This document shows positions 2,476 through 23,588 of a DNA stretch of 64,000 nucleotides, in pieces (position 1 is the stretch's first letter; each line of letters begins with the position of its first letter). The notes beneath the pieces were generated by a model. That model had not been told where the DNA came from, made no database searches, and saw nothing but the letters and a program-made list of their open reading frames with translations. This DNA is from an uncultured Actinomycetota bacterium. Lineage in GTDB: Bacteria > Actinomycetota > Thermoleophilia > Gaiellales > Gaiellaceae. The stretch is from NCBI GenBank assembly GCA_963720045.1, contig CAVREC010000002.1, positions 69,361 through 133,360 on the forward strand, written 5' to 3'. The position numbers and the translations under genes were made by a program.

Positions 2476-5400
2476 TTGGCGCTGATCCTCAAGCGCGTCG
2501 GCCGCTACGAGCTGCTGAGGGAGGTCGGGCGCGGTGGAATGGCGACCGTCTACCTGGCGCGCCAGACCGACCTCGACCGCCATGTCGCGCTCAAGGAGCT
2601 CGCGAGCCTCCATTCCGCCGACGAGGCCTTCGCGGAGCGCTTCCTGCGCGAGTCGCGGATGGCGGGATCGCTGAGCCATCCGAACATCGTCACCGTCCAC
2701 GACTACTTCGAGCACGAGGGGACGCCCTACATCTCGATGGAGTACATCGCGCGCGGTTCGCTGCGCCCGCTCGTCGGCCACCTCACCCTGGCGCAGATCG
2801 GCGGTGTGCTCGAGGGTTTGCTCGCAGGCCTCCAGCACGCGGCGAGCCGCGGGATCGTCCACCGTGACATGAAGCCGGAGAACGTGATGGTCACCGGCGA
2901 GGGCGGCGTGAAGATCTCGGACTTCGGGATCGGCCGAGCGCTCAACCAGGCCGGAAACGCCTCGAAATTCCTGACCGCGACCGGAACCGCGATCGGCACG
3001 CCCGCCTACATGGCGCCGGAGCAGGCGATGGCGAAGGAGGTCGGGCCCTGGACGGATCTCTACTCGCTCGGGATCATGGCCTACGAGATGGTGCTCGGCG
3101 AGGTTCCGTTCGCCGACTCCGAGACGCCGATGTCGATGCTCGTCCGGCACGTCAGCGAGACCGTCCCGGCGCCCTCGTCGATCGACCCGTCGATCGACCC
3201 ACAGCTCGGCGAGTGGCTCGAATGGCTCCTGAACAAGGATCCGAAGGACCGGCCGCCGAGCGCCAGCGACGCCTGGGACAAGCTCGAGGAGATCATCATC
3301 CATCTGCTCGGCCCGCGCTGGCGGCGCGAGGCCCGCCTCGGCGACGGCGAAGGTGAGCCGCACGCCGACGAGGACGCAAAGCCGCTCACGCCGGCGCCCT
3401 TCTCGGAGGAGCGCTCGAAGGTTTCGCTCGGGACGCCTCAACCCGAGTATGTGACGGTCGACCCGGGAGCGACTGACGCAGCTGCGGCGGCGGCCGCAGC
3501 GGGCGCCGCGGCGGCAGCGGCGGCGACGCCTTCGCTCGATGCTCCCGCCCCCGCCGCGCCTGGGCCCGCTGCGCCCGTGGAAGTCGAACCCTCCGTTCCG
3601 GTTGCCGAGGACCCGCCCGCGCCGGTGCCTGCTGCCGAAGCGCCGGCCCCGCCGGAGCCCGCGGTCGACGAGCCGGCCGCCGACGAGCCGGCCGCTCCCG
3701 AGGCGGCCAAGCCGGCAGCCGAGAAGCCTCCTTCCGCAGCCGATACCCCGGCGACGCCCGGAGGCTCGCTCGACCTGGGCGACGAGGAAGAGGACATGTA
3801 CCTCACCTTTGCGCCCGGCGCAAAGAAAGCCGTCGTTCCCCCGCCGGCCCCGGTTCCGGTCGCCGAGGCACCCGCCGCCCCGCCTGCGGCGCCCGCTGCG
3901 CCTGCGCCGCTTGAGCCGCCCGCGCCTGCCCCGGTTGCCGAAACCCCGGCCCCGGCCCCGCCGAGCCCTGCACCGGTCGAGACGCCTGCTCCGCCTGCTC
4001 CGGAGGCCGCTCCGCCGGTTCCCGTGGCGGCCGAGGCGCCACCGCCTGCTCCCGCTCCCCCTGTGGCCCCCGAACCGATCGCGCCGGACTCCGAGCCGGA
4101 ACCCGACCACGACCATTCGGCCGCTGCCGCCGCGGCGACCGGTGCCGTCGCCGGTGCCGCCGCAGCCGCTGCCGCAGCCAGTCCGAAGCCGAAACGCGGG
4201 CTCGGGAGGCTGAAGAAGCCGAACGTCCCGAAGCTGCCGAACATGCCGAACATCCCGAACCTGCCTCCGGAGGTCCAGCAGTTCGCGCCGGGTATCGCCG
4301 GCGAGATCGGCGGGGCAAACGCGGAGCTTGCGGCGGTGCCCCAGGAGATGCAGATCCCCTCGGCGGGCCAGGAGTTCAACGAGGCGATGCCGGATGTCGC
4401 CGGGCACGTCGCCGAGGCGCAGGCGGTCGTCGGCGACACGCCGGGGACGCCGAGCATCCCGACCCCCCATGTCTCGCACACGAGGGAGCCGGTCGCGCCC
4501 GCAGCGGCAGCCGCTGCCGCGACGCCGGAGGCGCCCGCCCCCGAGGTGCACGAGAAGAAGCACCGAGGGGCGAAGATTGCCGGGGCGGCTGCGGGCGCTG
4601 CCGTTGCCGGCGCCGCCGCGGCCGCCGCTGCTCCGGCTGCCTCCGCAGCTGCCCCGCCGGCAGCTTCACCACCTGCCGCGCCGCCAGAGCCGCCGCCTCC
4701 ACCTCCGCCCGAGAAGCCGCCGTCCTCCACGCCGCTTGCGCCGGATCTTCTCGTCACGGCCCCGCCGGACAGGGCGCCGAAGGCCGTCGAGCATCCGAGC
4801 TTCGTCCTCACCGACGCGGTCAAGGCGCTCGACCAGGAAAAGGAGACGAAGACCACGATCAAGCCGCTCTGGATCCTCGTCGCCCTCGGCCTCGTGGCGG
4901 TCGTGGTCGTCGCGGTGATCGTGCTCGCGGGTGGCGGGAGCAGCGGGAAGAAGGCGGCGACGACCTCGACGACCACTCCGACCACGACAGGCCGGACGTC
5001 GACGACCACTCAGACGACCACCCCCACGACTCCCGTCATCGCCGAGGTTCCGCCCACGGCGATCCAGCAGCAGTCGATCGCCGGTGCCGGCGGCGGATCG
5101 GTCGTCGTCGCCTCGCCGGGCGGTGCGATCGAGCGCCTCTCGGGTGCGACGCTCAAGCCGCAGGCCTCGACCACCGATCCGGGAAGGCCCACCTCGATCA
5201 GCCAGAGCTACGGCCGCGTCTTCGTGACCGACAACGGCACGATCGCGACGTACAAGCTCAACGACCTGAGCCCGATCGACGCGGTCAGCCTCCCGGGGGC
5301 CTACGCCCTTGCCGGCGGCGGCGCCAACCTCCCGCTCTATGCCCTCTCGCGGCGCGGCGTCGACGGCGGCCAGATCTGCACGGTCACCCCGCAGGCCGTC

Positions 5401-6513
5401 TCGCCGTGCGTGACGGTTCCGTTCGCCCCCTCGGGCGGCGGGGTTCACCGGATCAGCTCGGGTAAGAGCGTCGTCTATCTCACCGATCGCGCTTCGGCGA
5501 GCGTCGTTCCCTACACGGCGACGAAGACCGCCCTCACTCCGGGCACACCGATCAAGCTGCCGGCGCAGCCTCAGGGCGATCCGGTCGCGATCGGCAAGAC
5601 GCTCTACGTTCCTGTCCGCCGAGGGATCGCCGTGATCGACACGACCACCGGCAAGGTCATCTCGACGATCGCCCTTCCCGTCTCGCCGCTCTCCCTCGTC
5701 GCCAATGGCAAGAAGCAGCTCTTCGCTGCGCTCTTCTCCACGAATCAGGTCGCCGCGCTGACGCTCACCAAGCCCGGCGCGACCCCCGCGATCAAGCTCA
5801 TCAAGGTGCAGAAAGGCCCGGTCGCGCTCGCGGACTCCGGCGGCTCGGTCTACGTCGTCAACGGTGCCACAGACAGCGCGCAGAAGATCAACCCGGCGAC
5901 GCTCACGGTGACGAGCGTCTCGAAGCTCCCGTCGCTCGGGTCGAACACGCCGCCGATCACCGCGCTGGCCCCGAAGATCGTCGCGAACGGGCGCACCGTC
6001 ACCGTCACCGTGCCGCTCCACGGCGGGACGCTTCCGTCGTCAGGCCTCGTGGTCTCCAGCACGAAGATCTCGGGCGGGCATGCTGCCGCCACGCTCTGGC
6101 AGGGCGGGATCAAGACGAAGGGCGGCACGAAGAGCGCACAAGGCGTCTCGGTCACGACGAGCTCACATCCGGGGCGTGTCGATGTCGTCCTGCACACTCG
6201 TGCCGGCGATTTCGAGAAGGTCGTCGTAGCCCGCGCCGGAGACGGCCGTGCGGTGAGCTTCACCCTGACTGAGCCGCCTCCGCCTCCGCCTCCGACGACG
6301 CCGACGACGACGCCGACGACGACGCCGACGACGACGCCGACCACGACGCCGCACGACGACGCCGACGACGACGCCGACGACGACGCCGACCACGACGCCG
6401 ACGACGACGCCGACCACGACGCCCACGACGACGCCCACGACGACGCCGACCACGACGCCGACGCACACCACGACGCCAACGTCGACCGGGATCACCATCG
6501 GCTAGTCGAATGA
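2476..6513 (+). CDS. Hanks-type Ser/Thr protein kinase, single TM, extracytoplasmic beta-propeller-like domain
   Basis: Kinase motifs GRGGMATVYLA..VALK, HRDMKPEN, SDFG and YMAPEQ. These are followed by a long Pro/Ala linker and the TM helix LWILVALGLVAVVVVAVIVLAGG. Then come a Ser/Thr linker, repeated strand-rich segments (YVTN/propeller-like) and a PTTT repeat tail. The start is uncertain: TTG 2476 is chosen just before the kinase domain, while the track ORF starts at 2344. Confidence 0.85.
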   Translation: MALILKRVGRYELLREVGRGGMATVYLARQTDLDRHVALKELASLHSADEAFAERFLRESRMAGSLSHPNIVTVHDYFEHEGTPYISMEYIARGSLRPLVGHLTLAQIGGVLEGLLAGLQHAASRGIVHRDMKPENVMVTGEGGVKISDFGIGRALNQAGNASKFLTATGTAIGTPAYMAPEQAMAKEVGPWTDLYSLGIMAYEMVLGEVPFADSETPMSMLVRHVSETVPAPSSIDPSIDPQLGEWLEWLLNKDPKDRPPSASDAWDKLEEIIIHLLGPRWRREARLGDGEGEPHADEDAKPLTPAPFSEERSKVSLGTPQPEYVTVDPGATDAAAAAAAAGAAAAAAATPSLDAPAPAAPGPAAPVEVEPSVPVAEDPPAPVPAAEAPAPPEPAVDEPAADEPAAPEAAKPAAEKPPSAADTPATPGGSLDLGDEEEDMYLTFAPGAKKAVVPPPAPVPVAEAPAAPPAAPAAPAPLEPPAPAPVAETPAPAPPSPAPVETPAPPAPEAAPPVPVAAEAPPPAPAPPVAPEPIAPDSEPEPDHDHSAAAAAATGAVAGAAAAAAAASPKPKRGLGRLKKPNVPKLPNMPNIPNLPPEVQQFAPGIAGEIGGANAELAAVPQEMQIPSAGQEFNEAMPDVAGHVAEAQAVVGDTPGTPSIPTPHVSHTREPVAPAAAAAAATPEAPAPEVHEKKHRGAKIAGAAAGAAVAGAAAAAAAPAASAAAPPAASPPAAPPEPPPPPPPEKPPSSTPLAPDLLVTAPPDRAPKAVEHPSFVLTDAVKALDQEKETKTTIKPLWILVALGLVAVVVVAVIVLAGGGSSGKKAATTSTTTPTTTGRTSTTTQTTTPTTPVIAEVPPTAIQQQSIAGAGGGSVVVASPGGAIERLSGATLKPQASTTDPGRPTSISQSYGRVFVTDNGTIATYKLNDLSPIDAVSLPGAYALAGGGANLPLYALSRRGVDGGQICTVTPQAVSPCVTVPFAPSGGGVHRISSGKSVVYLTDRASASVVPYTATKTALTPGTPIKLPAQPQGDPVAIGKTLYVPVRRGIAVIDTTTGKVISTIALPVSPLSLVANGKKQLFAALFSTNQVAALTLTKPGATPAIKLIKVQKGPVALADSGGSVYVVNGATDSAQKINPATLTVTSVSKLPSLGSNTPPITALAPKIVANGRTVTVTVPLHGGTLPSSGLVVSSTKISGGHAAATLWQGGIKTKGGTKSAQGVSVTTSSHPGRVDVVLHTRAGDFEKVVVARAGDGRAVSFTLTEPPPPPPPTTPTTTPTTTPTTTPTTTPHDDADDDADDDADHDADDDADHDAHDDAHDDADHDADAHHDANVDRDHHRLVE
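6274..6480 (+). repeat. coding 12-nt tandem repeat (ccgacgacgacg, PTTT) with an internal frame switch
   Basis: Direct reading: the P7(TTPT)n tract changes to HDDADDDADH.. after an extra c in ccgcacgacgacg near 6350. In the other frame the PTTT repeat would continue to a TAG at about 6502. Confidence 0.8.
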
Positions 6514-6515: not shown

Positions 6516-6531
6516 GGCCCCGTCGGGGGCC
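6516..6531. terminator. short GC hairpin between convergent kinase and hydrolase genes
   Basis: GGCCCC-gtcg-GGGGCC lies in the 33-nt gap between the stop codons at 6513 (+) and 6547 (-). There is no clear U-tract. Confidence 0.35.
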
Positions 6532-6546
6532 AGGCCTACAGCGTGC

Positions 6547-9285
6547 TTACGCGTTCGGGTCGGGAACAGCCGGCAGGACCTGCACCGTGCTCCCGGTTCC
6601 GCCGCCCGGCTCCGGGGGCGGCGTGCCCGAACCGCCGCCCGAAACCGCGTCGAAGAGACCGCTGTTGCCGGTGCCCTGCTGAGCCGGCTCCGGGGTCGGT
6701 GACCCCGGGGTCGGTGCTGCGGGCGGCTCGACCGGAGGCGCCGCGCCCGCACCGGGCGGCTCGGGGGTGCCGCTTGCAAGGCCTGTGACGTCGCTTCCGC
6801 CTGCGAACTGCTCCTTGTAATACGGCTCGTCGAGGCTCGAGATCTTCACCACGTCGCCTGTGTGCGGGGCGTGGAGGAACATGTGGTTCCCGATGTACAG
6901 GCCCTCGTGGTGCACGTAGCCGGTCGAGTCCTTGAAGAAGACGATGTCGCCCGGCTTGAGGTCGTTCACGTTCGAGATGTGCTCGCCGACGTTGAACTGG
7001 TCGGCCGCGACGCGCGGGACGTGGATCCCGAGTTGGCCGTAGCTGTACTCCACGAGGCCCGAGCAGTCGAAGCCGGTCTGCGGCGTGTCGCCGCCCCAGT
7101 GATACGGCGTGCCGATGTATTTCTCCGCGATCGTCAGCGCCTGGACACCGGCCGCCGAGCCTCCGGCCGCGGCGCCCGTCGCGCCCTGGAGCGCTTCCGC
7201 TGCGGCAGCCGCGTCGGGCCCCGCGGTGCCTCCGGCTCCCGCCCCGCCCGGCCCACCTGCCGAAAGGAGGCTGTCGGCCTGGTCGAGGTGGGTCTGGTAG
7301 CGGCCGCGGTACTCGGCGGCGGGCTGCTCGACGTCCGCGACCCAGTCGCCCCACTTGCTCTTGTCCTGGCCGTAGCTCGCATCGCCCTGTGAGAGGCGTT
7401 CGCGCCGGACCTCGAGCGCCTGGTTGATGAACCACTTGAGCTGGAGCTCCGGGTGGTCGGAGAAGCCCTTGTACTCGCCCTGGTTCCAGATGCTCGTCCG
7501 CATCTGGAAGAAGCCGAGCGAGTCGCGGTCGCCGTAGTTGTCGTTCTTCAGGCCCGACTCGGTGAGCGCCGCCATGATCGGCAGCTCGGCCGGCAGCCCC
7601 GCCTTGTGTGCCTGCCGCGCCATCCACGCAGCGATCGCCTGCTGGGAGGCGTTGTCGCCGGGATAGGTGTCGCTCGCATCGGGCAGCCCGCCCGCCGCGT
7701 TCGGGTCGAATCCCTGGAGCGCCGACTCCGCGGCGGCTCCGCCGTGACCCGTGGCGGGCACCTCGAACTGGAAGGTCGAGTGACCCTCGCGGCCCTGCAC
7801 CGCTCCGATGACCATGCTCTGGTGCGTCGGCGGGGGTGGTGGCGCGCCGGGTGTCGTCACGGGCGTCACGGGCTCCGGCGGCGAGGTGGTCGGGGCGGCC
7901 GGCGGGGTGGTCGTGGGATCGGGCGGTGCGCCTCCGCCGGCGGGCGGCGTCGTCGGCGTGGGTGGAGGCGTCGTCGGCGCGGCGGGGGGAGTCGTCGTCG
8001 GATCCGGAGGCGGCGTCGAGGGCGCGGCCGGCGGGGTCGTTGCCGGATCGGGTGGCGTCCCGCCGGAAGGGGGCGTGGTCGCCGGGTCGGCCGGAGGCGT
8101 CGAACCGCCCTGTGGCTCTGGTGGCGTGGGCAACGGGGTGGGCGGCGGCGTCGTCGGCGCGGCCGGCGGCGTCGTGGTCGGGTCGGGTGGTGGTGTGGAG
8201 GGTGCGGCCGGCGGCGTCGTGGTCGGGTCGGGTGGTGGTGTGGAGGGCGCGGCCGGCGGCGTCGTGGTCGGGTCGGGTGGTGGTGTGGAGGGTGCGGCGG
8301 GCGGCGTCGTGGTCGGGTCGGGTGGTGGTGTGGAGGGCGCGGCCGGCGGCGTGGTGCTCGAATCCGGCGGCGTCGTGCCCGGCTCGGGCGGCGTCGTGCC
8401 CGGGGAAGGCGGCGTCGTTCCGGTGTCCGGCGTCGTCGAGGTGTCGACGGGGTCGTTCGTCCCGGCGACCATGTGCGTGGCCGGGGCCGAGGACGAGGGA
8501 GCGTCGAAGATGAGGTGGATCCGGTCGTCGTGGCCGCCGCCCTGCGTGAAGCCGTGCGCCTCGATCGGCCACGGTGTCACGATCTGCGCCGGCCGCAAGG
8601 ACGGGTCGAGCGAGGCGAGCTCGTTGGCCAGGTCGCGTGCGTAGATGTTCGACTGCGACACCCGCTCGCCGTCGACCGAGAGGATGTCGAACGAATCGCC
8701 TCCCGCCCCGTGGCTCACCTGGAGCGCCCCGATCTGGAGCTGGTGCTGCTTCGTCAGGTCGTCGAGCACCGACACGAGCCGAGCGTCGGCGCCGCCCCGT
8801 GCGAGGGCTGCGTGTGCCTCCGGCGAGAAGGTCAGGTGCGTGTTGTGAAGCAGGGTCGTGATGTCCGACGAGCTCGCGAGATGGGCCGATGAGCCCGAGC
8901 CCGCCAGATGGTCGGTGACGCCCGAGCCGTGGAGGTTGTCGGGATCGATCGCGTGCAGCTTCGGGCTCGTGAGCGCGTGATGGACGACCCGGTGGGCCTG
9001 GCCGTGAAGGTGGTTGTCATGGAGGTTCTTGAGGTGGTCGACGGCTCCGGTCCCCTCGGACGCGGCGGCCATGAACGCACCGGCGAGGCTCGAGCGGGAC
9101 TCGCGGATCTCGAGCGTGTGGAACATGCTCGCCGTGGAACCGCCGCCGAACTCGGTCGCGAGCTCCGGGAGGTCGAACTGCTCGCACGCGCTCGCCGGAT
9201 CGTGCCGGAAGCTCGCGCGGAACTCGTCGTCGGTCAGAAGCTTCTCGAGCAGCTCCGCAGCGCGTGCTTCGTCAGACGACTGCAC
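6547..9285 (-). CDS. multidomain cell-wall hydrolase: lytic-transglycosylase-like region plus NlpC/P60 endopeptidase; no signal peptide
   Basis: NlpC/P60 signature YIGTPYHWGGDTPQTGFDCSGLVEYSYGQLGIHVPR...GDIVFF...HHEGLYIG. SLT-like segment LPIMAALTESGLKN...DSLGFFQMRTSIW. Long TTPPAAPSTPPPDP repeats. The N-terminus MQSSDEARAAELLEKLLTDDEFRASF is hydrophilic. The start overlaps the upstream gene end by 14 nt. Confidence 0.85.
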   Translation of the reverse strand: MQSSDEARAAELLEKLLTDDEFRASFRHDPASACEQFDLPELATEFGGGSTASMFHTLEIRESRSSLAGAFMAAASEGTGAVDHLKNLHDNHLHGQAHRVVHHALTSPKLHAIDPDNLHGSGVTDHLAGSGSSAHLASSSDITTLLHNTHLTFSPEAHAALARGGADARLVSVLDDLTKQHQLQIGALQVSHGAGGDSFDILSVDGERVSQSNIYARDLANELASLDPSLRPAQIVTPWPIEAHGFTQGGGHDDRIHLIFDAPSSSAPATHMVAGTNDPVDTSTTPDTGTTPPSPGTTPPEPGTTPPDSSTTPPAAPSTPPPDPTTTPPAAPSTPPPDPTTTPPAAPSTPPPDPTTTPPAAPSTPPPDPTTTPPAAPTTPPPTPLPTPPEPQGGSTPPADPATTPPSGGTPPDPATTPPAAPSTPPPDPTTTPPAAPTTPPPTPTTPPAGGGAPPDPTTTPPAAPTTSPPEPVTPVTTPGAPPPPPTHQSMVIGAVQGREGHSTFQFEVPATGHGGAAAESALQGFDPNAAGGLPDASDTYPGDNASQQAIAAWMARQAHKAGLPAELPIMAALTESGLKNDNYGDRDSLGFFQMRTSIWNQGEYKGFSDHPELQLKWFINQALEVRRERLSQGDASYGQDKSKWGDWVADVEQPAAEYRGRYQTHLDQADSLLSAGGPGGAGAGGTAGPDAAAAAEALQGATGAAAGGSAAGVQALTIAEKYIGTPYHWGGDTPQTGFDCSGLVEYSYGQLGIHVPRVAADQFNVGEHISNVNDLKPGDIVFFKDSTGYVHHEGLYIGNHMFLHAPHTGDVVKISSLDEPYYKEQFAGGSDVTGLASGTPEPPGAGAAPPVEPPAAPTPGSPTPEPAQQGTGNSGLFDAVSGGGSGTPPPEPGGGTGSTVQVLPAVPDPNA
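8150..8345 (-). repeat. near-perfect 45-bp coding tandem repeat (TTTPPAAPSTPPPDP, about 4 copies) within a wider Pro/Thr tract (about 7860..8440)
   Basis: Direct reading of lines 8161-8340: the unit ggccggcggcgtcgtggtcgggtcgggtggtggtgtggagggygc recurs with 45-nt period. Confidence 0.85.
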
Positions 9286-10912
9286 CTTCGACTCCTGCCT
9301 CCCGGTCGCTTCGGCGTGCCGAGTACGCCTTCCAGAATACTGCCAGGATCGGGACGAGCATCAGGATGTAGAAGGCGATCAGCACCGCCCAGACGAGGCT
9401 CGCCGGGGCGATCGCGGTCATGTAGCCGTAGTAGCGCTGCGACATCACGACCGTGAACGCGGCGGTTGCGAGCGACCAGACGAGCGCGGTCACCGCGTAG
9501 GTGGCGAGCACGCCCGCGTCGTCGGGCTCCGCTTCCCGCCCGGAGAGGCGGTTCGAGAGCCATTCGCGCGAGCGGCGGCGCAGCCCGGGCTCGCGCATCA
9601 GGTCGACGAGGATGTGGTAGCCGTCGCGGTCGAGCAGCGGGTTCAGGTTGAAGATCGCGCCCGTGTAGGCGGCGAGGGCGAGCTGGAACCAGACGTCCTG
9701 CAGCGTCCCCGGCGACGAGAAGACGGCGAGGAGCGCGGCGGCGCCGGCGATCGTGAGGTCGCTGATCGGGCCCGCGGCGCTGATCGCGATCCGCCGGCGC
9801 GCCGGCTCGAACCACGCCTCCGAGGTGTCCACGTAGGCGTACGGGAAGATCAGCATCAGCTTGATCCCGGCCTTCGGAACCTTCCGGCCGAACGACTCGA
9901 CGGTCAGCCCGTGGGCGAACTCGTGCACGATCACGACGAGGAAGCGCCCGACGAGGAACACGATCCCTCCGACTCCGACCTTGCCCGCGACCACGAACGG
10001 GGCCACGGTGCCGCTGCCGATCAGGTCCGCGAACGCGACGATCCCGGCAGCCGAGATCAACGCGAACGCGATCAGCGGGGGCCGAGTGAAGAGCAGGAAG
10101 CCGCCGGCGCGATAGACCTTCGTGAAGACCGGGCCGAGCCAGGTGAAGTCCCACTGGCGCATCCGGAAGAGACGGGCAAGCTTCTTCTTCGAAGGCGGCG
10201 CCTTCGCCTCCTCGACCCCCTCGAGCAGGCCCCGCTCGCCGAGGTCTGCCAGCATCGAGGCGAGCTTGCTCGGGCCGTCGGCGCCGAAGCGCCCTGTCGC
10301 GGCCACGATCAGGCTCGACAGCGAGTTCTCGCCGTTCAGCAGCCCGAGCAGGTTTGCGTCCTCGGCGCTCAGCCGCACGAAACGGCCGTCGGGGCCGCGC
10401 AGGACGAAGCGGAGGTCGCCCTCGTCCGCGGCCAGCCGCTTCAGCTTCGAGCCGGCGCGCAGGCGGGGGAAACGGAGCGCGGCACCGTCCTCGTCGGGCA
10501 GGCCGGGGATCGCGCCGAAGACGACCGTGCGGCCGCTCTCCGACTCGTTGCGCTTTGCCTCGATCGTCAGTTGCACGTCGCCGAGCCCGAGCTTCGAGCC
10601 GTCGCGGAGCAGCGTCCGGCCGGTGATCTGCTGCCCGTCGACGAACGTGCCGTACGTCGAGCCGGCGTCCTCGACCGCCGGCCCGTCCGGGTCGATCACG
10701 ATCCGCGCGTGGTTACGGGAGACCGTCTCGCCCTGGATCCGGATCAGGTTCTCGCTGCCGCGGCCGAGCGTCAGCGGGCCGTAGACGAGCGGGATCCGGC
10801 GCCCGTCGCCGATGACGAGCTCGAGCGGCGCGCGGCCCTTGACGGGCGTGCCGCAGACGGTGCAGACGTCGTCGTCGCGTGCGATCTGGCATCGGCAGCT
10901 TCGGCAGAGCAT
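9272..10912 (-). CDS. zinc-ribbon + FHA domain + polytopic M50 (site-2-protease-like) metalloprotease
   Basis: ATG at 10912 lies 1 nt after the stop of the upstream gene (10914). Zinc ribbon CRSCRCQIARDDDVCTVCG. FHA signature LTLGRGSEN..VSRNHARIV..DAGSTYGTFVDG. Several TM segments. HEFAH (HExxH) and NLNPLLDRDGYH (NxxPxxxxDG) motifs. Confidence 0.8.
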   Translation of the reverse strand: MLCRSCRCQIARDDDVCTVCGTPVKGRAPLELVIGDGRRIPLVYGPLTLGRGSENLIRIQGETVSRNHARIVIDPDGPAVEDAGSTYGTFVDGQQITGRTLLRDGSKLGLGDVQLTIEAKRNESESGRTVVFGAIPGLPDEDGAALRFPRLRAGSKLKRLAADEGDLRFVLRGPDGRFVRLSAEDANLLGLLNGENSLSSLIVAATGRFGADGPSKLASMLADLGERGLLEGVEEAKAPPSKKKLARLFRMRQWDFTWLGPVFTKVYRAGGFLLFTRPPLIAFALISAAGIVAFADLIGSGTVAPFVVAGKVGVGGIVFLVGRFLVVIVHEFAHGLTVESFGRKVPKAGIKLMLIFPYAYVDTSEAWFEPARRRIAISAAGPISDLTIAGAAALLAVFSSPGTLQDVWFQLALAAYTGAIFNLNPLLDRDGYHILVDLMREPGLRRRSREWLSNRLSGREAEPDDAGVLATYAVTALVWSLATAAFTVVMSQRYYGYMTAIAPASLVWAVLIAFYILMLVPILAVFWKAYSARRSDREAGVEGAVV

Positions 10913-10913: not shown

Positions 10914-13874
10914 TCACGGGGGTGTGACGTATTGCCAGGACGGGTTCTGGGCCCCGGAGGCGCGGAGCTGGGTGACCGTGCCCGCCGAGGCGAGCTGCAG
11001 CCGGGCGAGCGCGCCGAGGGCATTCGAGCATGCGTTGTCGGCCTGCGTGACGATCACCTCGCCGCCGTCGGCGCGCCACGTGACCTCGCAGGCGCGAACC
11101 GTCGGGGTGACGGGTTTCGGCGTGCCGAGCTGGCCGCTCGACCACGTGGCCGTGTAGAGCCGGAAGACCTGGTTGTTCGTCCAGTTGGCGACGAGCGCGA
11201 CCTGCGTCCCGTCGGGCGAGAACGCGGCGTAGATCACGGCGTCGCTGCCTTTCGAGCCGTGCATCTTGTCGGTGACGAGGCCCTGCCACACCCAGTCGCT
11301 CGGGCTCGAGGAGAACGGGCGGGCGGTCGTGTACTCGCCGAGCTCGATCTGGTTCTTGTCCTTCGGGTCGTGTGCGACGACGAGGATCGCCCGCCCGTCG
11401 GGCGACCAGGCCGGGCGGTCGACGTCGAACGCCGGGTCCTTGATGCACGCGCCCTGATGGAGGGTCGAGGCCGTGCGGACGAAGCAGAGGTCGCCGTCGG
11501 TACCCGTCGAGGTCTTGCGAATGAACGCGATCACCTTGCCGTCCGGGGAGAACGCGGGTCTGCGGTCGTTCGGGCCCGCCGTGATCGCCCGCGCGCTCGT
11601 CGCGCCCTTCGAGGTGTCGACCATCCAGACCTTTCCCGCGTTCGCGTTCCCCGCCGGGCCGCGGCGGAAGGCGACGAGATGGCCGTTCGGCTGCCAGCTC
11701 GGCTCGTCCTCGGCATCGCCCGACGCCGCGATCTTCTTCGCGGCGGCGCCGTTGACCGCGCTCATCGTGTAGATCGAGGAGCCGTCGGAGAAGGCGACCG
11801 GAGGCAGGCCGGCGGAGATGATCAGCTGGACGGTCGCGCCCTTCGTCACCGTCGCCGGGTTCGTGCCGACGACCGTCCCGGGCTTCGCAGCGTCGAACTG
11901 CTGGCTCGTGACCGCCGTCGCACCCGCGGCTTTCACCGCCGCGGCCGCAGCGGCAGCGCTCTGCCCGGCGAGGGCGCCGCCGGCGACGGGCGTCGGCGTC
12001 GTCGTCTTTGTCCCGCCGGTCGTGGGCGGCACGACCTTCGGCGGATTGACGTAGATCGTCACCGCCGAGCCGGCCTTCTCCCTCGATTGCGCCGTCGGAA
12101 CCTGGAGCGAGATCTTCGCGGTCGTCGGGTTCACGGTCGAGGGAATCGGGTTCAGGACCGGCGCCAGTCCGGCGCCCTTGATCAGGGCCGAGGCCTGCGC
12201 GATCCCCTGGCCGACGACGTTCGGCACGGTGCGGAGGCCGCTGCCGACCGCGACGACGATCGTGATCGTCGTCCCTTCCGCGACCGGCGTCTTCGCGGCC
12301 GGGCTCTGGGTGATGATCGTGCCGATCTTCTTCTTCGCCCGCGAGGCGAGCTCGGGCTTGGCGGGACCGAGCACGAGCTTCAATCCGGGCAGTACTTTCT
12401 GGGCCTGCGCCTGGGTGGCGCCCACGAGGTTCGGGACACGCGGCTCGGCGACGAAGAACGTGACGGTCTTCCCGGTCTTGATCCTGTTTGCGGTGAAGTG
12501 GCCGTTCTGGACGGGCCCCTTGTGCCAGCTCGGGTTCTGCCTGACCACATGGAGGTAGGCGACCGTCTTCGAGGGCACCTCGCCGGGCGGCTGCGAAGCC
12601 GGCTTCAGGTTTGCCTTCTGGATCGCGAGCTGGGCTGCTGCGATCGTCATCCCGTGCAGATCCGGCACCGTCGTCTTGTGCGGGATCAGCGAATAGAGCA
12701 GTACCGCCGCCGCGATCAGGGCCGGGATCACGATCGGCACCCAGAAGGGGATCCACGGCTTCTGGCGGAAGGTGCCCTGAAGCGGCCTCGCGGTGGACTC
12801 GCCGACAGCCCCCTTCGCCGTGACCTCGAAGCGGCGCTCGATGATGCGTCCGACCCAGTGGTTGTGTTTCGGCTTGACGGTGAACTTCGTTCCGTCTCGC
12901 CGCCCGGGCTCGGCGACGAAGCGCGGCTTCTCGAAGTTGAAGTTGAGCGCGTTCTGGTTGTCGACCGCGGTGATCTCGGTGTCGAGCGGGGCGTTCGCCT
13001 TGTTCCGCACCATCACCGCGTACTCTCCGCGCCGCCGGCCGACGACGATCTCGGGCCGCAGCTCGCTCTCGATCTGCTCGTACGGGGTGATCTCGACCTT
13101 GCCCGCGGTCAGGCCGGTCACCTCGTTCTGGGCACGCGAGAGGGCGATCACCTCGATCTCCCAGATCCGCGCCTCGGCCTCGGCGCTGCGCGGCGGGCTG
13201 AAGTTGATGTGGACGTCCTGCTCGTAGGTGCCGCTCGGTGCGCCGAACGGGACGAGGTAGACCGACGGGGGCGTGACGTTCCACCACTCCTCGGGCATCC
13301 CCTTCACCTGGATCTCGTAGTTGTCGACGATGCCGCTCTGGTTGCGGACGAGCGCAGGCAGCGGGACGTGGCCGCCGGCCTCGACGACGAGTTTCTGCTC
13401 TTTGCCGGGAAGCTCCGGGTAGTTCAGCGTGATCTGCACCGCCTCCGTGACAAGGAGCGGCGCGACGCCCGGGATGTTCGGGGCATTCGGATCGCCCGCA
13501 CGGATCACGGGCATGTCCATCGTGCGCATCACCGGCACGGGAATCTCGACCGCGTGCTGTTCCTCGGGCGGCGCTGCGGGCGGTTCGGGCGGCGCTGCGG
13601 GCGGTGCGGAAGCCGCCGGCGGCGGAGCGGCTGCGGGTGGCGGGGCGGTGGCGGCAGCCGCACCTGCCGCTGCTGCCGGCACTACCTCGGCCGGAGCGGG
13701 CTCTTCAGGAGGAGGTGCGACCGGCGCAGGCTCGGCCGGCGCAGCGGGCGCTTCGGCCTCGGGCAGCTTGACGGCGGGCTGGAGCCGTGTCGGGTCCCAG
13801 CGCAGGTAGGTGCCGCAGTTGACGCAGAAGTCGACGTCGTCGTTCTCGTGCGCGCACTTCGGACAAGGGGCCAT
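10914..13874 (-). CDS. bitopic membrane protein: N-terminal zinc ribbon and Ig-like cytoplasmic region, one TM, 3-4 PASTA domains, TolB-like beta-propeller
   Basis: Zinc ribbon CPKCAHENDDVDFCVNCG, then a Pro/Ala linker and the TM helix WIPFWVPIVIPALIAAAVLLYSLI. PASTA-like units (TVPDLHGMTIAAAQLAI.., RVPNLVGATQAQAQKVL.., RTVPNVVGQGIAQASALI..). Repeated FSPDG/WSPDG propeller motifs (RPAFSPDGKVIAF, RPAWSPDGRAILV, AAFSPDGTQVALV). Confidence 0.8.
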   Translation of the reverse strand: MAPCPKCAHENDDVDFCVNCGTYLRWDPTRLQPAVKLPEAEAPAAPAEPAPVAPPPEEPAPAEVVPAAAAGAAAATAPPPAAAPPPAASAPPAAPPEPPAAPPEEQHAVEIPVPVMRTMDMPVIRAGDPNAPNIPGVAPLLVTEAVQITLNYPELPGKEQKLVVEAGGHVPLPALVRNQSGIVDNYEIQVKGMPEEWWNVTPPSVYLVPFGAPSGTYEQDVHINFSPPRSAEAEARIWEIEVIALSRAQNEVTGLTAGKVEITPYEQIESELRPEIVVGRRRGEYAVMVRNKANAPLDTEITAVDNQNALNFNFEKPRFVAEPGRRDGTKFTVKPKHNHWVGRIIERRFEVTAKGAVGESTARPLQGTFRQKPWIPFWVPIVIPALIAAAVLLYSLIPHKTTVPDLHGMTIAAAQLAIQKANLKPASQPPGEVPSKTVAYLHVVRQNPSWHKGPVQNGHFTANRIKTGKTVTFFVAEPRVPNLVGATQAQAQKVLPGLKLVLGPAKPELASRAKKKIGTIITQSPAAKTPVAEGTTITIVVAVGSGLRTVPNVVGQGIAQASALIKGAGLAPVLNPIPSTVNPTTAKISLQVPTAQSREKAGSAVTIYVNPPKVVPPTTGGTKTTTPTPVAGGALAGQSAAAAAAAVKAAGATAVTSQQFDAAKPGTVVGTNPATVTKGATVQLIISAGLPPVAFSDGSSIYTMSAVNGAAAKKIAASGDAEDEPSWQPNGHLVAFRRGPAGNANAGKVWMVDTSKGATSARAITAGPNDRRPAFSPDGKVIAFIRKTSTGTDGDLCFVRTASTLHQGACIKDPAFDVDRPAWSPDGRAILVVAHDPKDKNQIELGEYTTARPFSSSPSDWVWQGLVTDKMHGSKGSDAVIYAAFSPDGTQVALVANWTNNQVFRLYTATWSSGQLGTPKPVTPTVRACEVTWRADGGEVIVTQADNACSNALGALARLQLASAGTVTQLRASGAQNPSWQYVTPP

Positions 13875-13888: not shown

Positions 13889-14542
13889 TCAGTCAGCGGG
13901 CGGCGGCGGCTTTTTCGCAGCTTTGACGCGCAGTCTGTAGGTCACATGCACCGGTTTTGTCTCCTCGATCACCCGCGCGATCGCGAGCTGGGTCTTTTCG
14001 GGAATCGGAGTGTCGCAGTAGACCACAAAGCTCGGTGGGGGAGCCTTCGTTCGTGTCTCAGGATTTGTCGACCACGTGACCCCGCCGCCGTCTTCGACCC
14101 GGAGCGGGATCTTCGGGAACGCGATCGAAAGCGCGAGCGTGAGGCCCGCTTTCGTCCCGCGCTGCCGCGAGAGCTCTCCTTCGCGGCTGAGCGCCTCGCG
14201 GAGCCGGTCGTCGGGCCAGCCTTCCTCGACGTTCAGGCCGAGCCACGAGGCGAGCAGGTCGAGCACGTCGCGCGGGGCGAGCGTCGGATGGAAGTAGAGC
14301 GAGAGCACGTCGAGCGTGCCCACGATCGGATCGAGCGCCGTCTCGAGCGCGCCCAGGAAGCGCAGGCCGAAATCTCCGTCCTGGTAGATGCTCGGCATGT
14401 TGTTGCGCAGGTAGCCGCGCATCGAGACGACCTCGGGCGCCTTTCCGGCCGAAAGCCGCGCCCGGAGGTTCGTCGTCGAGAAGCCACGGCGCGTCGTGAC
14501 CCCGTGCGCGAGCGAGGTGCCCTGAACGGTCGACGGGCTCAA
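13889..14542 (-). CDS. baseplate protein, phage tail protein I-like (P2 gpI / Afp12 position)
   Basis: Characteristic MPSIYQDGDFGLRFLGALETALDPIVGTLDVLSLYFHPTLAPRDVLDLLASWLGL. The start overlaps the upstream stop (14539..14542). An internal start at MRGYL is possible. Confidence 0.7.
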   Translation of the reverse strand: MSPSTVQGTSLAHGVTTRRGFSTTNLRARLSAGKAPEVVSMRGYLRNNMPSIYQDGDFGLRFLGALETALDPIVGTLDVLSLYFHPTLAPRDVLDLLASWLGLNVEEGWPDDRLREALSREGELSRQRGTKAGLTLALSIAFPKIPLRVEDGGGVTWSTNPETRTKAPPPSFVVYCDTPIPEKTQLAIARVIEETKPVHVTYRLRVKAAKKPPPPAD

Positions 14543-16545
14543 ATCTCTGCCCGCTCGGCCTTGATGATGTGCGTGCCGGACGCGATCACTTCGTCCTCGC
14601 CGATCTCGATGTAGCTGCCGGCCGGTTTCGGATCCTGCTTGCCGCTGGCAAGGTCGGTCTCGTAGACGCGGAGGATCTTGATGAACTCGACGCCCTCGAT
14701 CTTGCGGACGATCCCGTAGAGCTCACCCTGATTCAGCGAGCGCCCGAACTCCCAGCCCTCGCCGAGGCCGTCGGTCGAGCCGCCGACGAGTGGGTTCAGG
14801 TAGCTGTAGAGGGCGTAGCCGACGTCCTGCTCGACGCGCTCGAGGTCGGCGTTGATCGAGGCCTGGAGGTTCACGACGACGCTGACGCCGTGCAGCTTCA
14901 CCGGCAGCAGCTCGAGGCTCATCCCGATCACGCGCCGCTCGTCGAGGTACTCGGCGACCTCGGTCAGGAGCGCTTCGTCGGGCGACAGCTCGTCGACGCT
15001 GAGCTGACGGTCGGCGGGAGCGACCATCGGCAGGATGTGGACGCGCACCATCCCGTCCTCGCCCGGCGGCAGGCACACGGCGCGGGCGACCCGGGGCGAG
15101 GCCTCGCCGCAGAGGAACTCGAAGTCGTCCGGGGTGACGGCCCGGTAGCGCGTCCGGATCTCGAGCGCAGCCCTGTTCCTCGCGCTTTCCAGCGATTCCG
15201 GGTCGACTCCGCCGAACGCGGGCCGGAGGTTCGTCACCGTGTCCACGCCCGGGATCGCGCTCTTCAGCACCGACAGCGTGCCGCTGGAGACGTTCCCCTG
15301 GCGGCCACCGCCATGCCGGTACCGGGTGAAGCGGAGCGTCGCATCCTTCTTCGGGACGCCGCCGTACTGCTGCCAGTTGCCGTCGGGCGTGCGGATCGCC
15401 GGGCCGAACTCGAGCTGTCCCGCCGCGGCGTTCAGGACGTAATGCCGGGAAGTCGGCTTGCTCTCGACGAAGGACTCCACCTGATCCCAGCGCTCCCACG
15501 TCCCTGAGTCGGGGTCGAGCACCTCGAGGAACTCCTCGGGCGTCGGGTCGAGGATCGGGTAGTAGCGGAGCTCGAAGACCTGCCCCGGCGTCCCGTCGCT
15601 CGCGCCGACGATCTCCTCGTTCACGCGCTCGGAATGGGCGGCGGGGATGATCGCTCCGATCGGGGCCGCCGTGATCCCATGGATCTCCGGCGGATGGGAG
15701 TAGGTGGCCCCGCCGCTCGCGCCCGAGCGCGTCTTCGAGTCGAGCCGGCAGCAGACCCAGTAGGCGCGGTGGCCCGCGATCGGGACGGCGGTGTGCTCGG
15801 CGGGAAGCTGGATCGTCACCTTCCCGGACCCGTAGTTGAAGCCTCCGGTCAGGTCCTCGACCACCTCGGCCTCGAGCCACCCCGTCTCCTCCTCGGCGAC
15901 CGAGACCTCCCAGCGAAGCGGCGGATCCTCGGGATCGACGCCGGCGCCGCGGGCCTGGGAGCAGTCCACGTCGACCTCGAGCAGGATGTTCGCGAGCGGG
16001 ACGTCGAAGCCGAGGTAGAGGGCATCGCCGGCCTTCGGCGGGGTGCCGAAAGCGTTCTGGTCCGGCCCCTTCGGCTTCGCGACACCGTTCGCGACGCCGA
16101 TGTCCTTGACTGCGCCGCCCCGCTTGACCGCGTAGAAGCCCGGCCGCGCCGGGGGGATCGTGAAGTCCTGGGAGGTCTGGAAGACGATCGCCGCCTCGTT
16201 CGCGGTTCGGATCGTCCCGACCTCGGTCTCGCCGGCGGGGATCTCGACCGGCTCGGTGGGCGGTGCGGTGAGCTTGAAGCGAAGATGCGTCGTCGCGGCG
16301 ACCGGCGGCTCCAGCTCGATCCCGAGCAAGTTCAAGAGCGTCACATGCAGCTTCTCGGGAACGCGGTTCAGCCGGTAGATGATCGTCTCGGTCAGCCAGG
16401 CGAACAGCTCGACGAGCGTGATCCCCGGGTCGGAGACGTTGTGCTCCGACCATTCGGGACAGCGTTGCGAGAGCCGCTGGCGAGCCTCGTTCACGAGGTC
16501 CTGGAAGCCGCGGTCGTCGAGGGTGACCTCGGGGATCCGGCTCAT
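14539..16545 (-). CDS. baseplate J-like protein (Afp11 / gp6-like wedge)
   Basis: ATG at 16545 shares one nt with the gp25 stop (TGATG). The N-terminus IPEVTLDDRGFQDLVNEARQRLSQRCPEWSEHNVSDPGITLVELFAWL is typical of CIS baseplate assembly proteins. About 668 aa, the 3' part of track ORF 14539..18495. Confidence 0.85.
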   Translation of the reverse strand: MSRIPEVTLDDRGFQDLVNEARQRLSQRCPEWSEHNVSDPGITLVELFAWLTETIIYRLNRVPEKLHVTLLNLLGIELEPPVAATTHLRFKLTAPPTEPVEIPAGETEVGTIRTANEAAIVFQTSQDFTIPPARPGFYAVKRGGAVKDIGVANGVAKPKGPDQNAFGTPPKAGDALYLGFDVPLANILLEVDVDCSQARGAGVDPEDPPLRWEVSVAEEETGWLEAEVVEDLTGGFNYGSGKVTIQLPAEHTAVPIAGHRAYWVCCRLDSKTRSGASGGATYSHPPEIHGITAAPIGAIIPAAHSERVNEEIVGASDGTPGQVFELRYYPILDPTPEEFLEVLDPDSGTWERWDQVESFVESKPTSRHYVLNAAAGQLEFGPAIRTPDGNWQQYGGVPKKDATLRFTRYRHGGGRQGNVSSGTLSVLKSAIPGVDTVTNLRPAFGGVDPESLESARNRAALEIRTRYRAVTPDDFEFLCGEASPRVARAVCLPPGEDGMVRVHILPMVAPADRQLSVDELSPDEALLTEVAEYLDERRVIGMSLELLPVKLHGVSVVVNLQASINADLERVEQDVGYALYSYLNPLVGGSTDGLGEGWEFGRSLNQGELYGIVRKIEGVEFIKILRVYETDLASGKQDPKPAGSYIEIGEDEVIASGTHIIKAERAEI

Positions 16546-16952
16546 CAGAAAGCCTCCGAGGGCTCGGCGGGGATCACGTAGAACGGATAGACGAGGTTGC
16601 GGAGGTCGTTCGTCGCGCGCAGCCGGTAGGTGATCTCGATCGTCAGCACGCCCTCGGCCATCCCGGTGAGGTCGGGGTCGACGCCGAGCACGTCGATCCG
16701 GGGCTCCCAGCGATCGAGCGCCGAGCGGATGTCGTACTCGATCTTCGCGAGCGTGGAGGGGTCGATGTTCCCGAAGACGTGGTTGTGGATCCCGCAGCCG
16801 AACTCGGGCCGCATGGGGCGCTCGCCCGGGGCGGTGCCGAGGATGAGGTCGATCGCCTCCTGAACGTCGCTGTCGCCGGAGCTCAGCGCAAGCCCCCCGA
16901 GCCGGTCGACTCGGAGCGGAAACGCAATCCCGGTGCCAATGATGTCGGACAT
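16545..16952 (-). CDS. gp25/GPW-like baseplate wedge protein (Afp9-like)
   Basis: GTGIAFPLRVD...EAIDLILGTAPGERPMRPEFGCGIHNHVF. GGAAGGGG RBS upstream of ATG 16952. Confidence 0.9.
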   Translation of the reverse strand: MSDIIGTGIAFPLRVDRLGGLALSSGDSDVQEAIDLILGTAPGERPMRPEFGCGIHNHVFGNIDPSTLAKIEYDIRSALDRWEPRIDVLGVDPDLTGMAEGVLTIEITYRLRATNDLRNLVYPFYVIPAEPSEAF

Positions 16953-16970
16953 CTACCCCTTCCTGGTCTG

Positions 16971-18626: not shown

Positions 18627-18651
18627 GGCACCGTTGTTGTCTCGGAGCGGC

Positions 18652-19347
18652 TCATTCCTCGATCTTCGGGATCGAGAGGATAGAGCCGCGCTTCAGGTGC
18701 AGCGGGTCGTCGATCCCGTTCGCCTCGGCGATCGAACGCCAGCGGGTCGGGTCGCGGTAATGGAGAAACGCGATCGAGGCGAGGCTGTCGCCGTCCCGCA
18801 CCGTGTGCGAGCCGAGGCCGGGCTGGGATCGCGTCGTCGGGTTCTGTGGGGCCGCCGAGCCGTGTTGGCTCGACGGGTCCATCGCCCGCTCGGCCTGGAT
18901 CAGCGAGAGCTGAGCCTGCGCGCGCACGGGTGTGCCGTCCGCGCGGAAGAGCGTGTACTGAATGCTCAGGCTGTCGGCGACGGCCTTGAAGGAGACGACG
19001 CTGCCCCAGACGAAGGTGACCATCGGCGGCCGGCCACTGTTTCGGGCGGAGCCCGAGGCGAGCCCCGCCTGCACCTCCATCATGTTGAAGAGCTGCTGGG
19101 TCACCTGGGTGACGTCGAGGCTCTGGGAGTCGGTCGAGTCGAAGAGAAGCTGAAGCGTGAGCTTGCGGGGATGGCCGCCGCCGAACTGCGCGGGCGGAAG
19201 CGCCGTCCCGACGACCGGTTTGACCGTCCAGTCGTTCTGCTTGGCGATCGTGTAGTCCTTGGGGTTGAACCAGCAGTCGATCGGGTCGCCGCCGCCCTCG
19301 ATCTCGAGGCTCGCAAGTTCGAATCCGGTGAGGGGTGGTAGCGGCAT
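18652..19347 (-). CDS. LysM-domain tube-initiator/hub protein (Afp7 / P2 gpX-like)
   Basis: ATG at 19347 lies 2 nt after the upstream stop. C-terminal LysM HTVRDGDSLASIAFLHYRDPTRWRSIAEANGIDDPLHLKRGSILSIP. It sits between the tube-like and VgrG genes. Confidence 0.85.
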   Translation of the reverse strand: MPLPPLTGFELASLEIEGGGDPIDCWFNPKDYTIAKQNDWTVKPVVGTALPPAQFGGGHPRKLTLQLLFDSTDSQSLDVTQVTQQLFNMMEVQAGLASGSARNSGRPPMVTFVWGSVVSFKAVADSLSIQYTLFRADGTPVRAQAQLSLIQAERAMDPSSQHGSAAPQNPTTRSQPGLGSHTVRDGDSLASIAFLHYRDPTRWRSIAEANGIDDPLHLKRGSILSIPKIEE

Positions 19348-19349
19348 GG

Positions 19350-19829: not shown

Positions 19830-19844
19830 CGTCTCTCCTTGCTG

Positions 19845-22559: not shown

Positions 22560-22564
22560 GTGCG

Positions 22565-23097: not shown

Positions 23098-23125
23098 GTG
23101 ACCTCCTCAACCCCCTCGTTGCTCG

Positions 23126-23566: not shown

Positions 23567-23588
23567 TTAGCTCCTCCTCTCTTTGTGT

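Follow-up and report, generated by a model that had tools for sequence, protein, structure and literature searches.

An FHA-M50 membrane protease, a leader-bearing cell-wall hydrolase and a Ser/Thr kinase at the 3′ end of a contractile injection system operon in Thermoleophilia

The stretch of DNA analysed here (the window, 64,000 nucleotides) comes from an uncultured bacterium of the Gaiellaceae, class Thermoleophilia (assembly GCA_963720045.1, contig CAVREC010000002.1, positions 69,361 to 133,360 of the forward strand), and carries an operon for a contractile injection system (CIS). The gene under study, which lies at the 3′ end of this operon, encodes a membrane protease of the M50 family fused to an FHA domain. 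It is preceded by the gene of a bitopic protein with PASTA and PD40 repeats and followed by that of a large cell-wall hydrolase, beyond which a Hanks-type Ser/Thr kinase gene converges on the operon. An earlier note on this stretch had proposed a threonine-phosphorylation switch with regulated intramembrane proteolysis (RIP) as its output, for example of the neighbouring bitopic protein. The module is related, on the one hand, to M50 leader peptidases that depend on a recognition element (RRE) for peptides that are made by ribosomes and modified after translation (RiPPs) and, on the other, to the threonine-phosphorylation control of contractile systems, and its output is probably the removal of a leader from the downstream hydrolase instead of RIP of the bitopic protein. 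Since the window has about 70% G+C, raw lists of open reading frames (ORFs) are noisy, but the protease gene is still unambiguous, and its parts are the following:

9272..10912, minus strand: protease gene, 546 amino acids (aa), a zinc-ribbon/FHA/RRE/M50 membrane metalloprotease (ORF translation, Pfam, NCBIfam, AlphaFold2 model)
10841..10912, minus strand: N-terminal zinc ribbon, aa 1-24, CxxC-x10-CxxC (C3, C6, C17, C20)
10553..10831, minus strand: FHA domain, aa ~28-120 (Pfam, Foldseek, residue invariance)
10463..10552, minus strand: low-confidence linker, aa 121-150, predicted local distance difference test score (pLDDT) 56-69
10208..10462, minus strand: RRE (PqqD-like), aa ~151-235, three beta-strands followed by helices
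9275..10105, minus strand: polytopic M50 core, aa ~270-546 (Pfam, NCBIfam, AlphaFold2)
9911-9925, minus strand: HEFAH, aa 330-334
9620-9649, minus strand: NLNPLLDRDG (NxxPxxxxDG), aa 422-431

The protease frame runs from an ATG at 10910-10912 to a stop at 9272-9274, both on the minus strand, and its start lies exactly 1 nucleotide (nt) past the stop of the PASTA/PD40 gene, at a TGA-g-ATG junction (CCCCCG TGA g ATG CTC TGC CGA). This spacing, together with the presence of a zinc ribbon and an M50 core inside the CIS operon, had been read in the earlier note and is confirmed by the ORF, by Pfam and by the AlphaFold2 (AF2) model. Residue conservation was counted on an alignment of 83 homologues of 46-95% identity, 77 of which keep the zinc-ribbon cysteines, the other six being N-terminally truncated; the Pfam families DZR and Zn_Ribbon are matched by 35-60 of the 83. 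The membrane core matches Peptidase_M50 over aa 319-400 (E 2e-8, 34.4 bits against a cut-off of 27.2), and residues H330, E331, H334, N422, N424, P425, D430 and G431 are invariant (83/83). The AF2 model of the whole protease (pLDDT 87, predicted TM-score 0.83) comprises an FHA beta-sandwich and a polytopic helical core, in which aa 277 to 545 form six long helices and a beta-hairpin in agreement with the hydropathy, and a weak sequence match relates the core to the SpoIVFB structure 8vjl. The metalloprotease is intact, and its soluble domains must lie on the cytoplasmic side.

In the case of the FHA domain, Pfam matches aa 48-111 (E 6e-15), and the best PDB fold matches of the full-length model in Foldseek are the actinobacterial FHA domains GarA, OdhI and FhaA. 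All 83 homologues share G50, R51, S65, R66, H68, G84, S85 and G88. An FHA phosphothreonine-binding domain is recognised by Gly-Arg, Ser-x-x-His and an Asn in the loops of an 11-strand sandwich; here the fold matches and G50, R51, S65, R66 and H68 are invariant, whereas H, Y or A is found in place of the Asn of the usual S-x-N-G-T motif, and the module called canonical in the earlier note is a putative phosphothreonine binder. The linker that follows contains T129 within the motif G-R-T-[IV]-V-[VF], present in 83/83 homologues, and this residue is a candidate phospho-acceptor or intramolecular FHA ligand that would allow a GarA-like intramolecular switch.

The domain between the linker and the membrane core had been overlooked by the earlier note, as had the leader on the downstream gene. 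A Foldseek search with the full-length model returned FHA matches only, and the RRE emerged after aa 140-262 had been folded alone (core pLDDT of at least 90). The top PDB matches of this isolated domain are all RREs, namely those of TbiB1 (with leader, 5v1v; TM-score 0.71-0.73), PbtF (entry 8t19), TigE, TruD, LynD, TglHI, MadB and CteB, two of the matched RREs having been solved with bound leader, and Pfam PqqD is matched by 22 of the 83 protease homologues. Moreover, the NCBIfam model NF041824, 'daptide biosynthesis intramembrane metalloprotease', whose profile starts ahead of the membrane core, aligns to aa 164-519 (E 1.4e-35) through profile positions 14-368 of 379 (355 positions), and the YydH/LiaK epipeptide protease model also aligns (E 2e-11). 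An RRE placed N-terminal to an intramembrane site-2 protease (S2P) is the arrangement of MpaP, the leader peptidase of daptides (bioRxiv 10.1101/2023.03.08.531785). No PDZ domain was found with Pfam in the protease or its homologues, and no site-1 protease or anti-sigma factor was recognised among the annotated genes of the operon. As judged from its sequence and modelled fold, the RRE places the protease in the clade of RRE-fused leader peptidases (daptide MpaP-like) and not with the RseP-type S2Ps.

The gene that follows encodes the candidate substrate:

6547..9285, minus strand: 912-aa cell-wall hydrolase precursor gene (translation, Pfam)
9133..9285, minus strand: NHLP-type leader, aa 1-51, ending in G-x-G (TIGR04509, NF038399)
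9046..9129, minus strand: most conserved segment of the precursor, aa 53-80, moderately hydrophobic
6802..7113, minus strand: NlpC/P60 endopeptidase domain, aa 725-828 (Pfam, E 5e-28; NCBIfam RipC/RipA/RipB-like)

Its GTG start, with a GGAGG upstream, overlaps the protease stop by 14 nt, and the product consists of an NHLP-like leader, a conserved segment, a long Pro/Thr-rich linker, a conserved central domain and the C-terminal NlpC/P60 domain. With the model TIGR04509, 'NHLP-related RiPP peptide' (cut-off 34 bits), the N-terminal 110 aa score 40.3 bits and the full protein 36.4; among other family members, one reaches 37.3 bits and two more 33.2 and 29.2. NF038399, another model of the NHLP clan, matches the leader at E 1e-7. 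The similarity to TIGR04509 spans the first ~45 residues and stops at the G-x-G motif, whose G49 and G51 are kept in 48 and 54, respectively, of 61 precursor sequences with a leader module. In NHLP leaders it is a Gly-Gly that closes the leader (PMC2887384). The segment that follows has the consensus K-A-x-x-T-L-[ED]-[IVLM]-R-E-S-[RK]-S-S-L-A-G-x-x-M-A-A-A-x-E-G, in which T57 is kept in 60/61 sequences and L58, R61, S63, S65, S66, G69, A73, E77 and G78 in 61/61. Many FHA domains prefer an aliphatic residue three positions after the phosphothreonine (pT), and T57, in the context T-L-[ED]-[IVLM], is a candidate pT-x-x-[IVL] site for the FHA domain. Hydropathy revealed no signal peptide or transmembrane (TM) helix in the precursor, so that some non-Sec route or activation step is needed.

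In one isolate genome (L014) leader and hydrolase lie in a single 1544-aa frame. Another locus (L077) has tandem genes at 11610 and 13451, both starting with the leader module and located downstream of the protease, an arrangement that points to more than one substrate in some genomes. Public NCBI records call truncated copies of the precursor 'NHLP-related RiPP peptide', and two short entries of that name on long contigs (P0188 and P0190) were considered as stand-alone precursors and rejected as frameshift-fragmented gene calls of Nanopore metagenome-assembled genomes (MAGs) with the same synteny. In the Nanopore MAG contigs L081 and L082, the PASTA, protease and hydrolase gene calls are broken into several short ORFs, and the short public annotations of this kind are likely frameshift or contig-end artefacts. 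Two further regions of the precursor are conserved (aa ~100-290 and ~540-680), neither of which matched Pfam or a PDB sequence. The second, central one carries an 'ES...GFFQ' pattern that recalls a lytic transglycosylase motif, although no claim is made on this basis; in many related loci this region, rather than NlpC/P60, is the best-conserved catalytic-looking part.

Two more genes flank the protease-hydrolase pair:

2476..6513, plus strand: convergent Hanks-type Ser/Thr kinase (Pkinase, E 3e-50)
6517..6533, strand not applicable: GC-rich inverted repeat, GGCCCC gtcg GGGGCC, where the kinase and hydrolase stops converge (sequence reading)
10914..13874, minus strand: 986-aa bitopic PASTA/PD40 protein gene (Pfam, NCBIfam, hydropathy)

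The kinase has its catalytic domain at aa 1-280, followed by a Pro/Ala linker, a TM helix (aa 800-818) and an extracytoplasmic repeat domain, and its stop lies 33 nt from that of the hydrolase, the inverted repeat between them being a likely bidirectional terminator. Both the Hanks domain and the convergent orientation agree with the earlier description, whereas the extracytoplasmic propeller that it added rests on a weak YVTN-repeat match (E 0.0026). This extracytoplasmic domain is conserved only in Gaiellales-like loci, and the kinases of Solirubrobacteraceae have a different C-terminus. The end of the window kinase (5900-6513, plus strand) reads as a Thr/Pro repeat and then a (D/H)-D-A-D repeat, a low-complexity tail that may reflect a DNA-level repeat or a frame problem. 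Upstream of the kinase, a gene of the CAP/cysteine-rich secretory protein family lies on the same strand (427-1245). The PASTA/PD40 protein, in turn, starts with a zinc ribbon, followed by a Pro/Ala linker and a cytoplasmic domain for which no Pfam family was found, a TM helix at aa 379-397, four PASTA repeats and a PD40/TolB-like propeller; it may serve in muropeptide sensing or in anchoring the CIS, and its gene sits immediately upstream of the protease in every CIS-linked locus.

An exhaustive family search over 1.8 billion representatives returned 303 clusters at E<=1e-30, and the FHA-M50 fusion proved to be a conserved family with 1518 matches and 231 genomic loci. The counts that follow refer to the best 80 of these 231 loci, obtained from a scan of one genome per species; essentially all of them belong to Thermoleophilia (Gaiellaceae, Solirubrobacteraceae, Miltoncostaeaceae and Thermoleophilaceae), three come from Solirubrobacter isolates and the closest is 92% identical. 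In 63 of the 80 loci (the leader class, or first context) a leader-bearing gene comes directly after the protease on the same strand, as it does in every locus of this class with downstream sequence. The distance from the end of the protease match to the start of the leader module is -7 to +140 nt, or +207 to +338 nt in two loci whose matches are split by frameshifts. Genes for the LysM tube protein, Baseplate_J, Tail_P2_I and the PASTA protein lie directly upstream and in the same orientation in 52 of the 54 leader-class loci with enough upstream sequence, from several Thermoleophilia families. Two leader-class loci (L059 and L071) lack CIS and PASTA genes and retain the protease, the leader-hydrolase and the kinase; the gene next upstream in L059 is unrelated and lies on the opposite strand. 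One more locus (L019) has CIS and PASTA genes upstream, but its contig stops 2 nt past the protease match and it falls outside the three contexts described here.

With respect to the kinase, phmmer against six-frame translations found a kinase domain scoring 385-640 bits against that of the window within 10 kb downstream in 40 of the 42 leader-class loci with a full 10 kb downstream flank, 35 of them convergent and five co-directional. The use of tblastn with the window kinase gave only ~30 of 40 linked loci, since the kinase-domain segment was overlooked in several (e.g. L004-L006); a direct reading of L004 revealed a complete kinase. In a second context (11 of the 80 loci: L028, at 6216-11653, L032, L042, L043, L046, L057, L062, L066, L067, L068 and L070) there are no CIS, PASTA or leader genes, and a membrane kinase of the same subfamily is divergently adjacent to the protease in 11/11, at 40-47 nt. 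The operon that follows this kinase, kept in all 11, encodes a WXG100 protein (Pfam, E 1e-22), an EspC/WXG-like protein and a protein of ~470 aa whose N-terminus resembles a type VII secretion system (T7SS) signal. In a third context (five loci) CIS genes, leader gene and kinase are all missing. The link of the fusion to CIS is strong, that to the kinase is kept in two arrangements of genes independent of each other, and the leader-bearing hydrolase is the one constant neighbour of the protease in the CIS context. The possibilities raised by the earlier note, that the fusion or its kinase linkage might not be conserved, that the FHA residues might prove non-canonical or that the kinase might belong to an unrelated neighbourhood, are, the Asn position of the FHA domain aside, not borne out by these data.

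The domain architecture, the catalytic and FHA residues, the leader homology and the conserved gene order with the kinase are computed features of the locus, and we favour, with moderate confidence, that they describe a phosphothreonine-gated leader peptidase that matures the downstream hydrolase under the conserved kinase. The protease would act not on a small peptide but on the large peptidoglycan hydrolase whose gene comes next and seems translationally coupled to its own. The process would start with the binding of the NHLP-like leader of the precursor by the RRE of the protease, after which the moderately hydrophobic segment past the G-x-G motif would enter the M50 active site. Cleavage would take place near G-x-G or inside the following segment, and the loss of the leader would mature, release or license the hydrolase. 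The FHA domain would make this step dependent on threonine phosphorylation by the membrane Ser/Thr kinase, with the precursor's T57, T129 in the protease linker or sites on the kinase itself as candidate phosphosites. An extracytoplasmic signal could thereby time the deployment of a wall-degrading enzyme that would be inert until then. Once armed, the hydrolase could act as a CIS cargo, in the breaching of the wall or in the lysis-dependent release of particles, roles among which sequence cannot discriminate. Because the module stands at the 3′ end of the CIS operon in most Thermoleophilia, the likeliest role of the hydrolase is that of a CIS payload or of an enzyme for wall breaching or lysis that is associated with the CIS. 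A broader version, in which RiPP machinery has been repurposed as a kinase-gated proprotein-convertase system that arms a large CIS hydrolase payload in monoderm Thermoleophilia, with a sister protease-kinase pair tied to WXG100/T7SS substrates, is offered more tentatively.

Several points weigh against this interpretation. The substrate, the cleavage, the phosphorylation, the localisation and the link to CIS function are, throughout, what we infer. Conservation of the precursor peaks after G-x-G, at aa 53-80, which makes the cleavage site uncertain, and this segment may serve another partner, for example in CIS loading. Where an FHA domain usually has Asn, 48 of the 83 homologues have H, 27 have Y and 6 have A. 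As for the RRE, its Foldseek E-values are modest (0.014-0.09), though the list of matches is uniform, and the NF041824 score (123.2 bits) is far under the equivalog cut-off of 300, so that the protease is a relative of the daptide enzyme and not that enzyme itself. The substrates of known RRE-M50 proteases are short peptides, and we know of no substrate protein of 900-1800 aa. No leader-like ORF was found near the 16 proteases of the second and third contexts, either with jackhmmer on six-frame translations or by reading the downstream ORFs, and the protease family must therefore have other substrates or roles. Finally, many of the related loci are Nanopore MAGs with frameshifts.

Among the alternatives, the one that survives best is a self-contained module of protease, leader-hydrolase and kinase that serves as a kinase-controlled autolysin or in wall remodelling, merely co-located with the CIS and without a role in injection. 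The module does stand alone in L059 and L071, the second context joins protease and kinase to WXG100/T7SS-like genes, and PASTA and NlpC/P60 domains are classic parts of wall homeostasis. However, 52 of 54 leader-class loci from several Thermoleophilia families have the module right after Tail_P2_I in the same orientation, and the genes of the window are tightly packed, with ~14 nt between Tail_P2_I and the PASTA gene, 1 nt between the latter and the protease, and the 14-nt overlap of protease and hydrolase. We regard co-location as rather unlikely on balance, yet a CIS-independent autolysin module is a real possibility, and one that would leave the protease-substrate-kinase reading unchanged. 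It is somewhat more doubtful that the N-terminus of the hydrolase is mainly a tag for CIS loading or docking and that the FHA-M50 protein is chiefly a phospho-dependent membrane adaptor, similar to CisA or Fha1, with proteolysis secondary or absent. This would suit the greater conservation of precursor aa 53-80 relative to the leader, the position of the module at the 3′ end of the operon, which is the usual place of toxin genes in extracellular CIS (eCIS; PMC8213781), and the bitopic membrane adaptor that the Streptomyces CIS requires (PMC12237407). On the other hand, the HExxH and Asp residues are invariant in 83/83 homologues, which speaks for an active enzyme, the NHLP homology of the leader is specific and the protease has a matching RRE, and the pair of protease and leader-hydrolase is also found without any CIS genes. 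The remaining alternative, in which an S2P cleaves the neighbouring bitopic PASTA/PD40 protein so that its freed cytoplasmic part triggers or anchors the CIS, draws on the 1-nt spacing and constant adjacency of the two genes in CIS-linked loci, on the N-in/C-out single-pass topology typical of S2P substrates and on the similar zinc ribbons with which both proteins begin, but it is improbable given the RRE, the leader-peptidase affinity and the lack of PDZ of the protease, the lack of a site-1 protease among the genes annotated here, and the loci that keep the protease without a PASTA gene (L059 and L071, which also keep leader-hydrolase and kinase, and the second context). The output favoured by the earlier note, S2P-style RIP of the bitopic protein, is considered improbable on the same grounds, to which the NF041824 alignment and the presence of the leader gene in 63/63 leader-class loci are added.

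The reading as a gated leader peptidase can be compared with several known systems. The closest are the daptide proteases MpaP/DapP, which share an RRE N-terminal to the M50 core, an adjacent precursor gene and a precursor with a leader followed by a hydrophobic stretch. They differ in that the protease described here has an additional zinc ribbon and FHA domain and scores under the family cut-off, that its operon contains no decarboxylase, aminotransferase or methyltransferase, and that its precursor is a hydrolase of 912 aa (up to ~1800 aa) with an NHLP-type leader instead of ELExMEAP. In Bacillus subtilis, SpoIVFB is an M50 protease with a cytoplasmic regulatory domain that strips the N-terminal pro-sequence from pro-sigma-K, a non-TM protein, on a signal from outside the compartment. 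The M50 core with a cytoplasmic regulatory domain and the removal of a pro-sequence, as proposed here, are points of likeness, in addition to the weak 8vjl match, whereas SpoIVFB has a CBS regulatory domain, a sigma-factor substrate and no kinase input in place of FHA and RRE. The NHLP/Nif11 precursors (Haft et al. 2010, PMC2887384) have a homologous helical N-terminal leader that also ends at a glycine motif, but they are proteins of ~100 aa with a short hypervariable core and an ABC/C39 exporter, whereas here a multi-domain enzyme takes the place of the 'core', the motif reads G-x-G and conservation runs past it; no ABC/C39 exporter was seen among the window ORFs scanned.

In the case of the Pseudomonas H1 type VI secretion system (T6SS), the PpkA-Fha1-PppA pathway likewise comprises a membrane Hanks kinase with an external sensor and an FHA module encoded with the contractile system. 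The analogy drawn in the earlier note holds for this shared logic but not for its implementation, as Fha1 is a soluble scaffold on TssJLM, while here FHA is fused to an enzyme, the protease, and no Tss membrane-complex genes are present. The cognate PP2C phosphatase is also encoded in that cluster, whereas in the window a gene for a GAF-SpoIIE(PP2C)-HATPase_c_2 protein (39763-41349, plus strand), whose PP2C domain could be a candidate phosphatase counterpart of the kinase, lies 29 kb away, just past the 5′ end of the CIS operon. CisA of the Streptomyces coelicolor CIS (PMC12237407) has a bitopic topology like that of the PASTA/PD40 protein; CisA itself has no PASTA repeats, zinc ribbon, or protease or kinase partners. 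Finally, RIP of the RseP/RasP type involves one or more PDZ domains and a single-pass substrate, an anti-sigma factor or the like, that is primed by a site-1 cut, and here Pfam gave no PDZ match and neither a site-1 protease nor an anti-sigma factor was recognised in the operon.

Searches of the literature on FHA and site-2 proteases, on CIS with M50 or FHA proteins and on CIS of Thermoleophilia or Solirubrobacter brought up no description of this module, and the eCIS survey (PMC8213781) mentions none of its domains. The earlier note knew of no described FHA-S2P fusion tied to a contractile system. How CIS are triggered and how they pass the thick wall of their own cell in Gram-positive-type bacteria is largely open, and to our knowledge only the CisA adaptor of Streptomyces has been described for the CIS of such organisms. 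The locus offers a concrete module, consisting of a sensor kinase, an FHA-gated protease and a leader-bearing wall hydrolase, that is conserved across a class of abundant soil Actinomycetota. If the proposal is true, leader recognition by RREs would be widened from small peptides to large enzymes, the intramembrane proteases, few of which have a known mode of regulation, would gain a phospho-regulated member, and CIS would have a post-translational arming switch. As cultured Solirubrobacter species carry the module, among them S. deserti CPCC 204708, S. phytolaccae KCTC 29190 and 'Ca. S. pratensis' URHD0082, it is experimentally accessible.

The fusion of FHA to M50 is in itself no peculiarity of this locus, although the literature searches brought up no paper on such fusions. 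In the wider family, RRE-M50 cores are fused to three FHA plus three cyclic-nucleotide (cNMP)-binding domains, to cNMP-binding domains alone, to FHA with a C-terminal cNMP-binding domain, or to Hsp70-like plus FHA domains (example relatives P0320, P0331, P0348, P0361 and P0351), and these other signalling domains suggest that a gated protease is a recurrent theme of the family.

The CIS operon that precedes the module, of which the protease gene occupies the 3′ end, comprises the following genes:

13889..31449, minus strand: CIS operon upstream of the module (Pfam)
13889-14542, minus strand: Tail_P2_I
14539 to ~16960, minus strand: Baseplate_J
16971-18626, minus strand: VgrG-like (Phage_base_V, E 1e-25)
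18652-19701, minus strand: LysM tube initiator
19350-19829 and 23126-23566, minus strand: two gp19-type tube genes
19845-22559, minus strand: 904-aa ORF, no Pfam family
23589-25136, minus strand: sheath
25690-26583, minus strand: Pvc16_N
28749-30803, minus strand: AAA ATPase
30751-31449, minus strand: eCIS_core/DUF4157

The gene set is that of an extracellular-type CIS, with sheath, tube, baseplate (J/I), spike, Pvc16-like cap, AAA ATPase and DUF4157; a gp25 gene is called in related loci, but none could be identified in the window. The VgrG-like gene lies in another frame over the 5′ third of a 1318-aa ORF (14539-18495), which indicates that this Baseplate_J ORF is over-extended and that its true start is at ~16960. 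The 904-aa ORF between the tube and tube-initiator genes falls inside a block of 78% G+C (20001-22000), the most G+C-rich part of the window, and its conservation in related loci is confined to the C-terminal ~100-200 aa; judging by where it lies, it may be a tape-measure-like or length-determining protein. Just past the 5′ end of the operon, the minus strand encodes a GerE-type response regulator (33810-34448) and a BTAD/AAA_16/TPR regulator (36928-39675).

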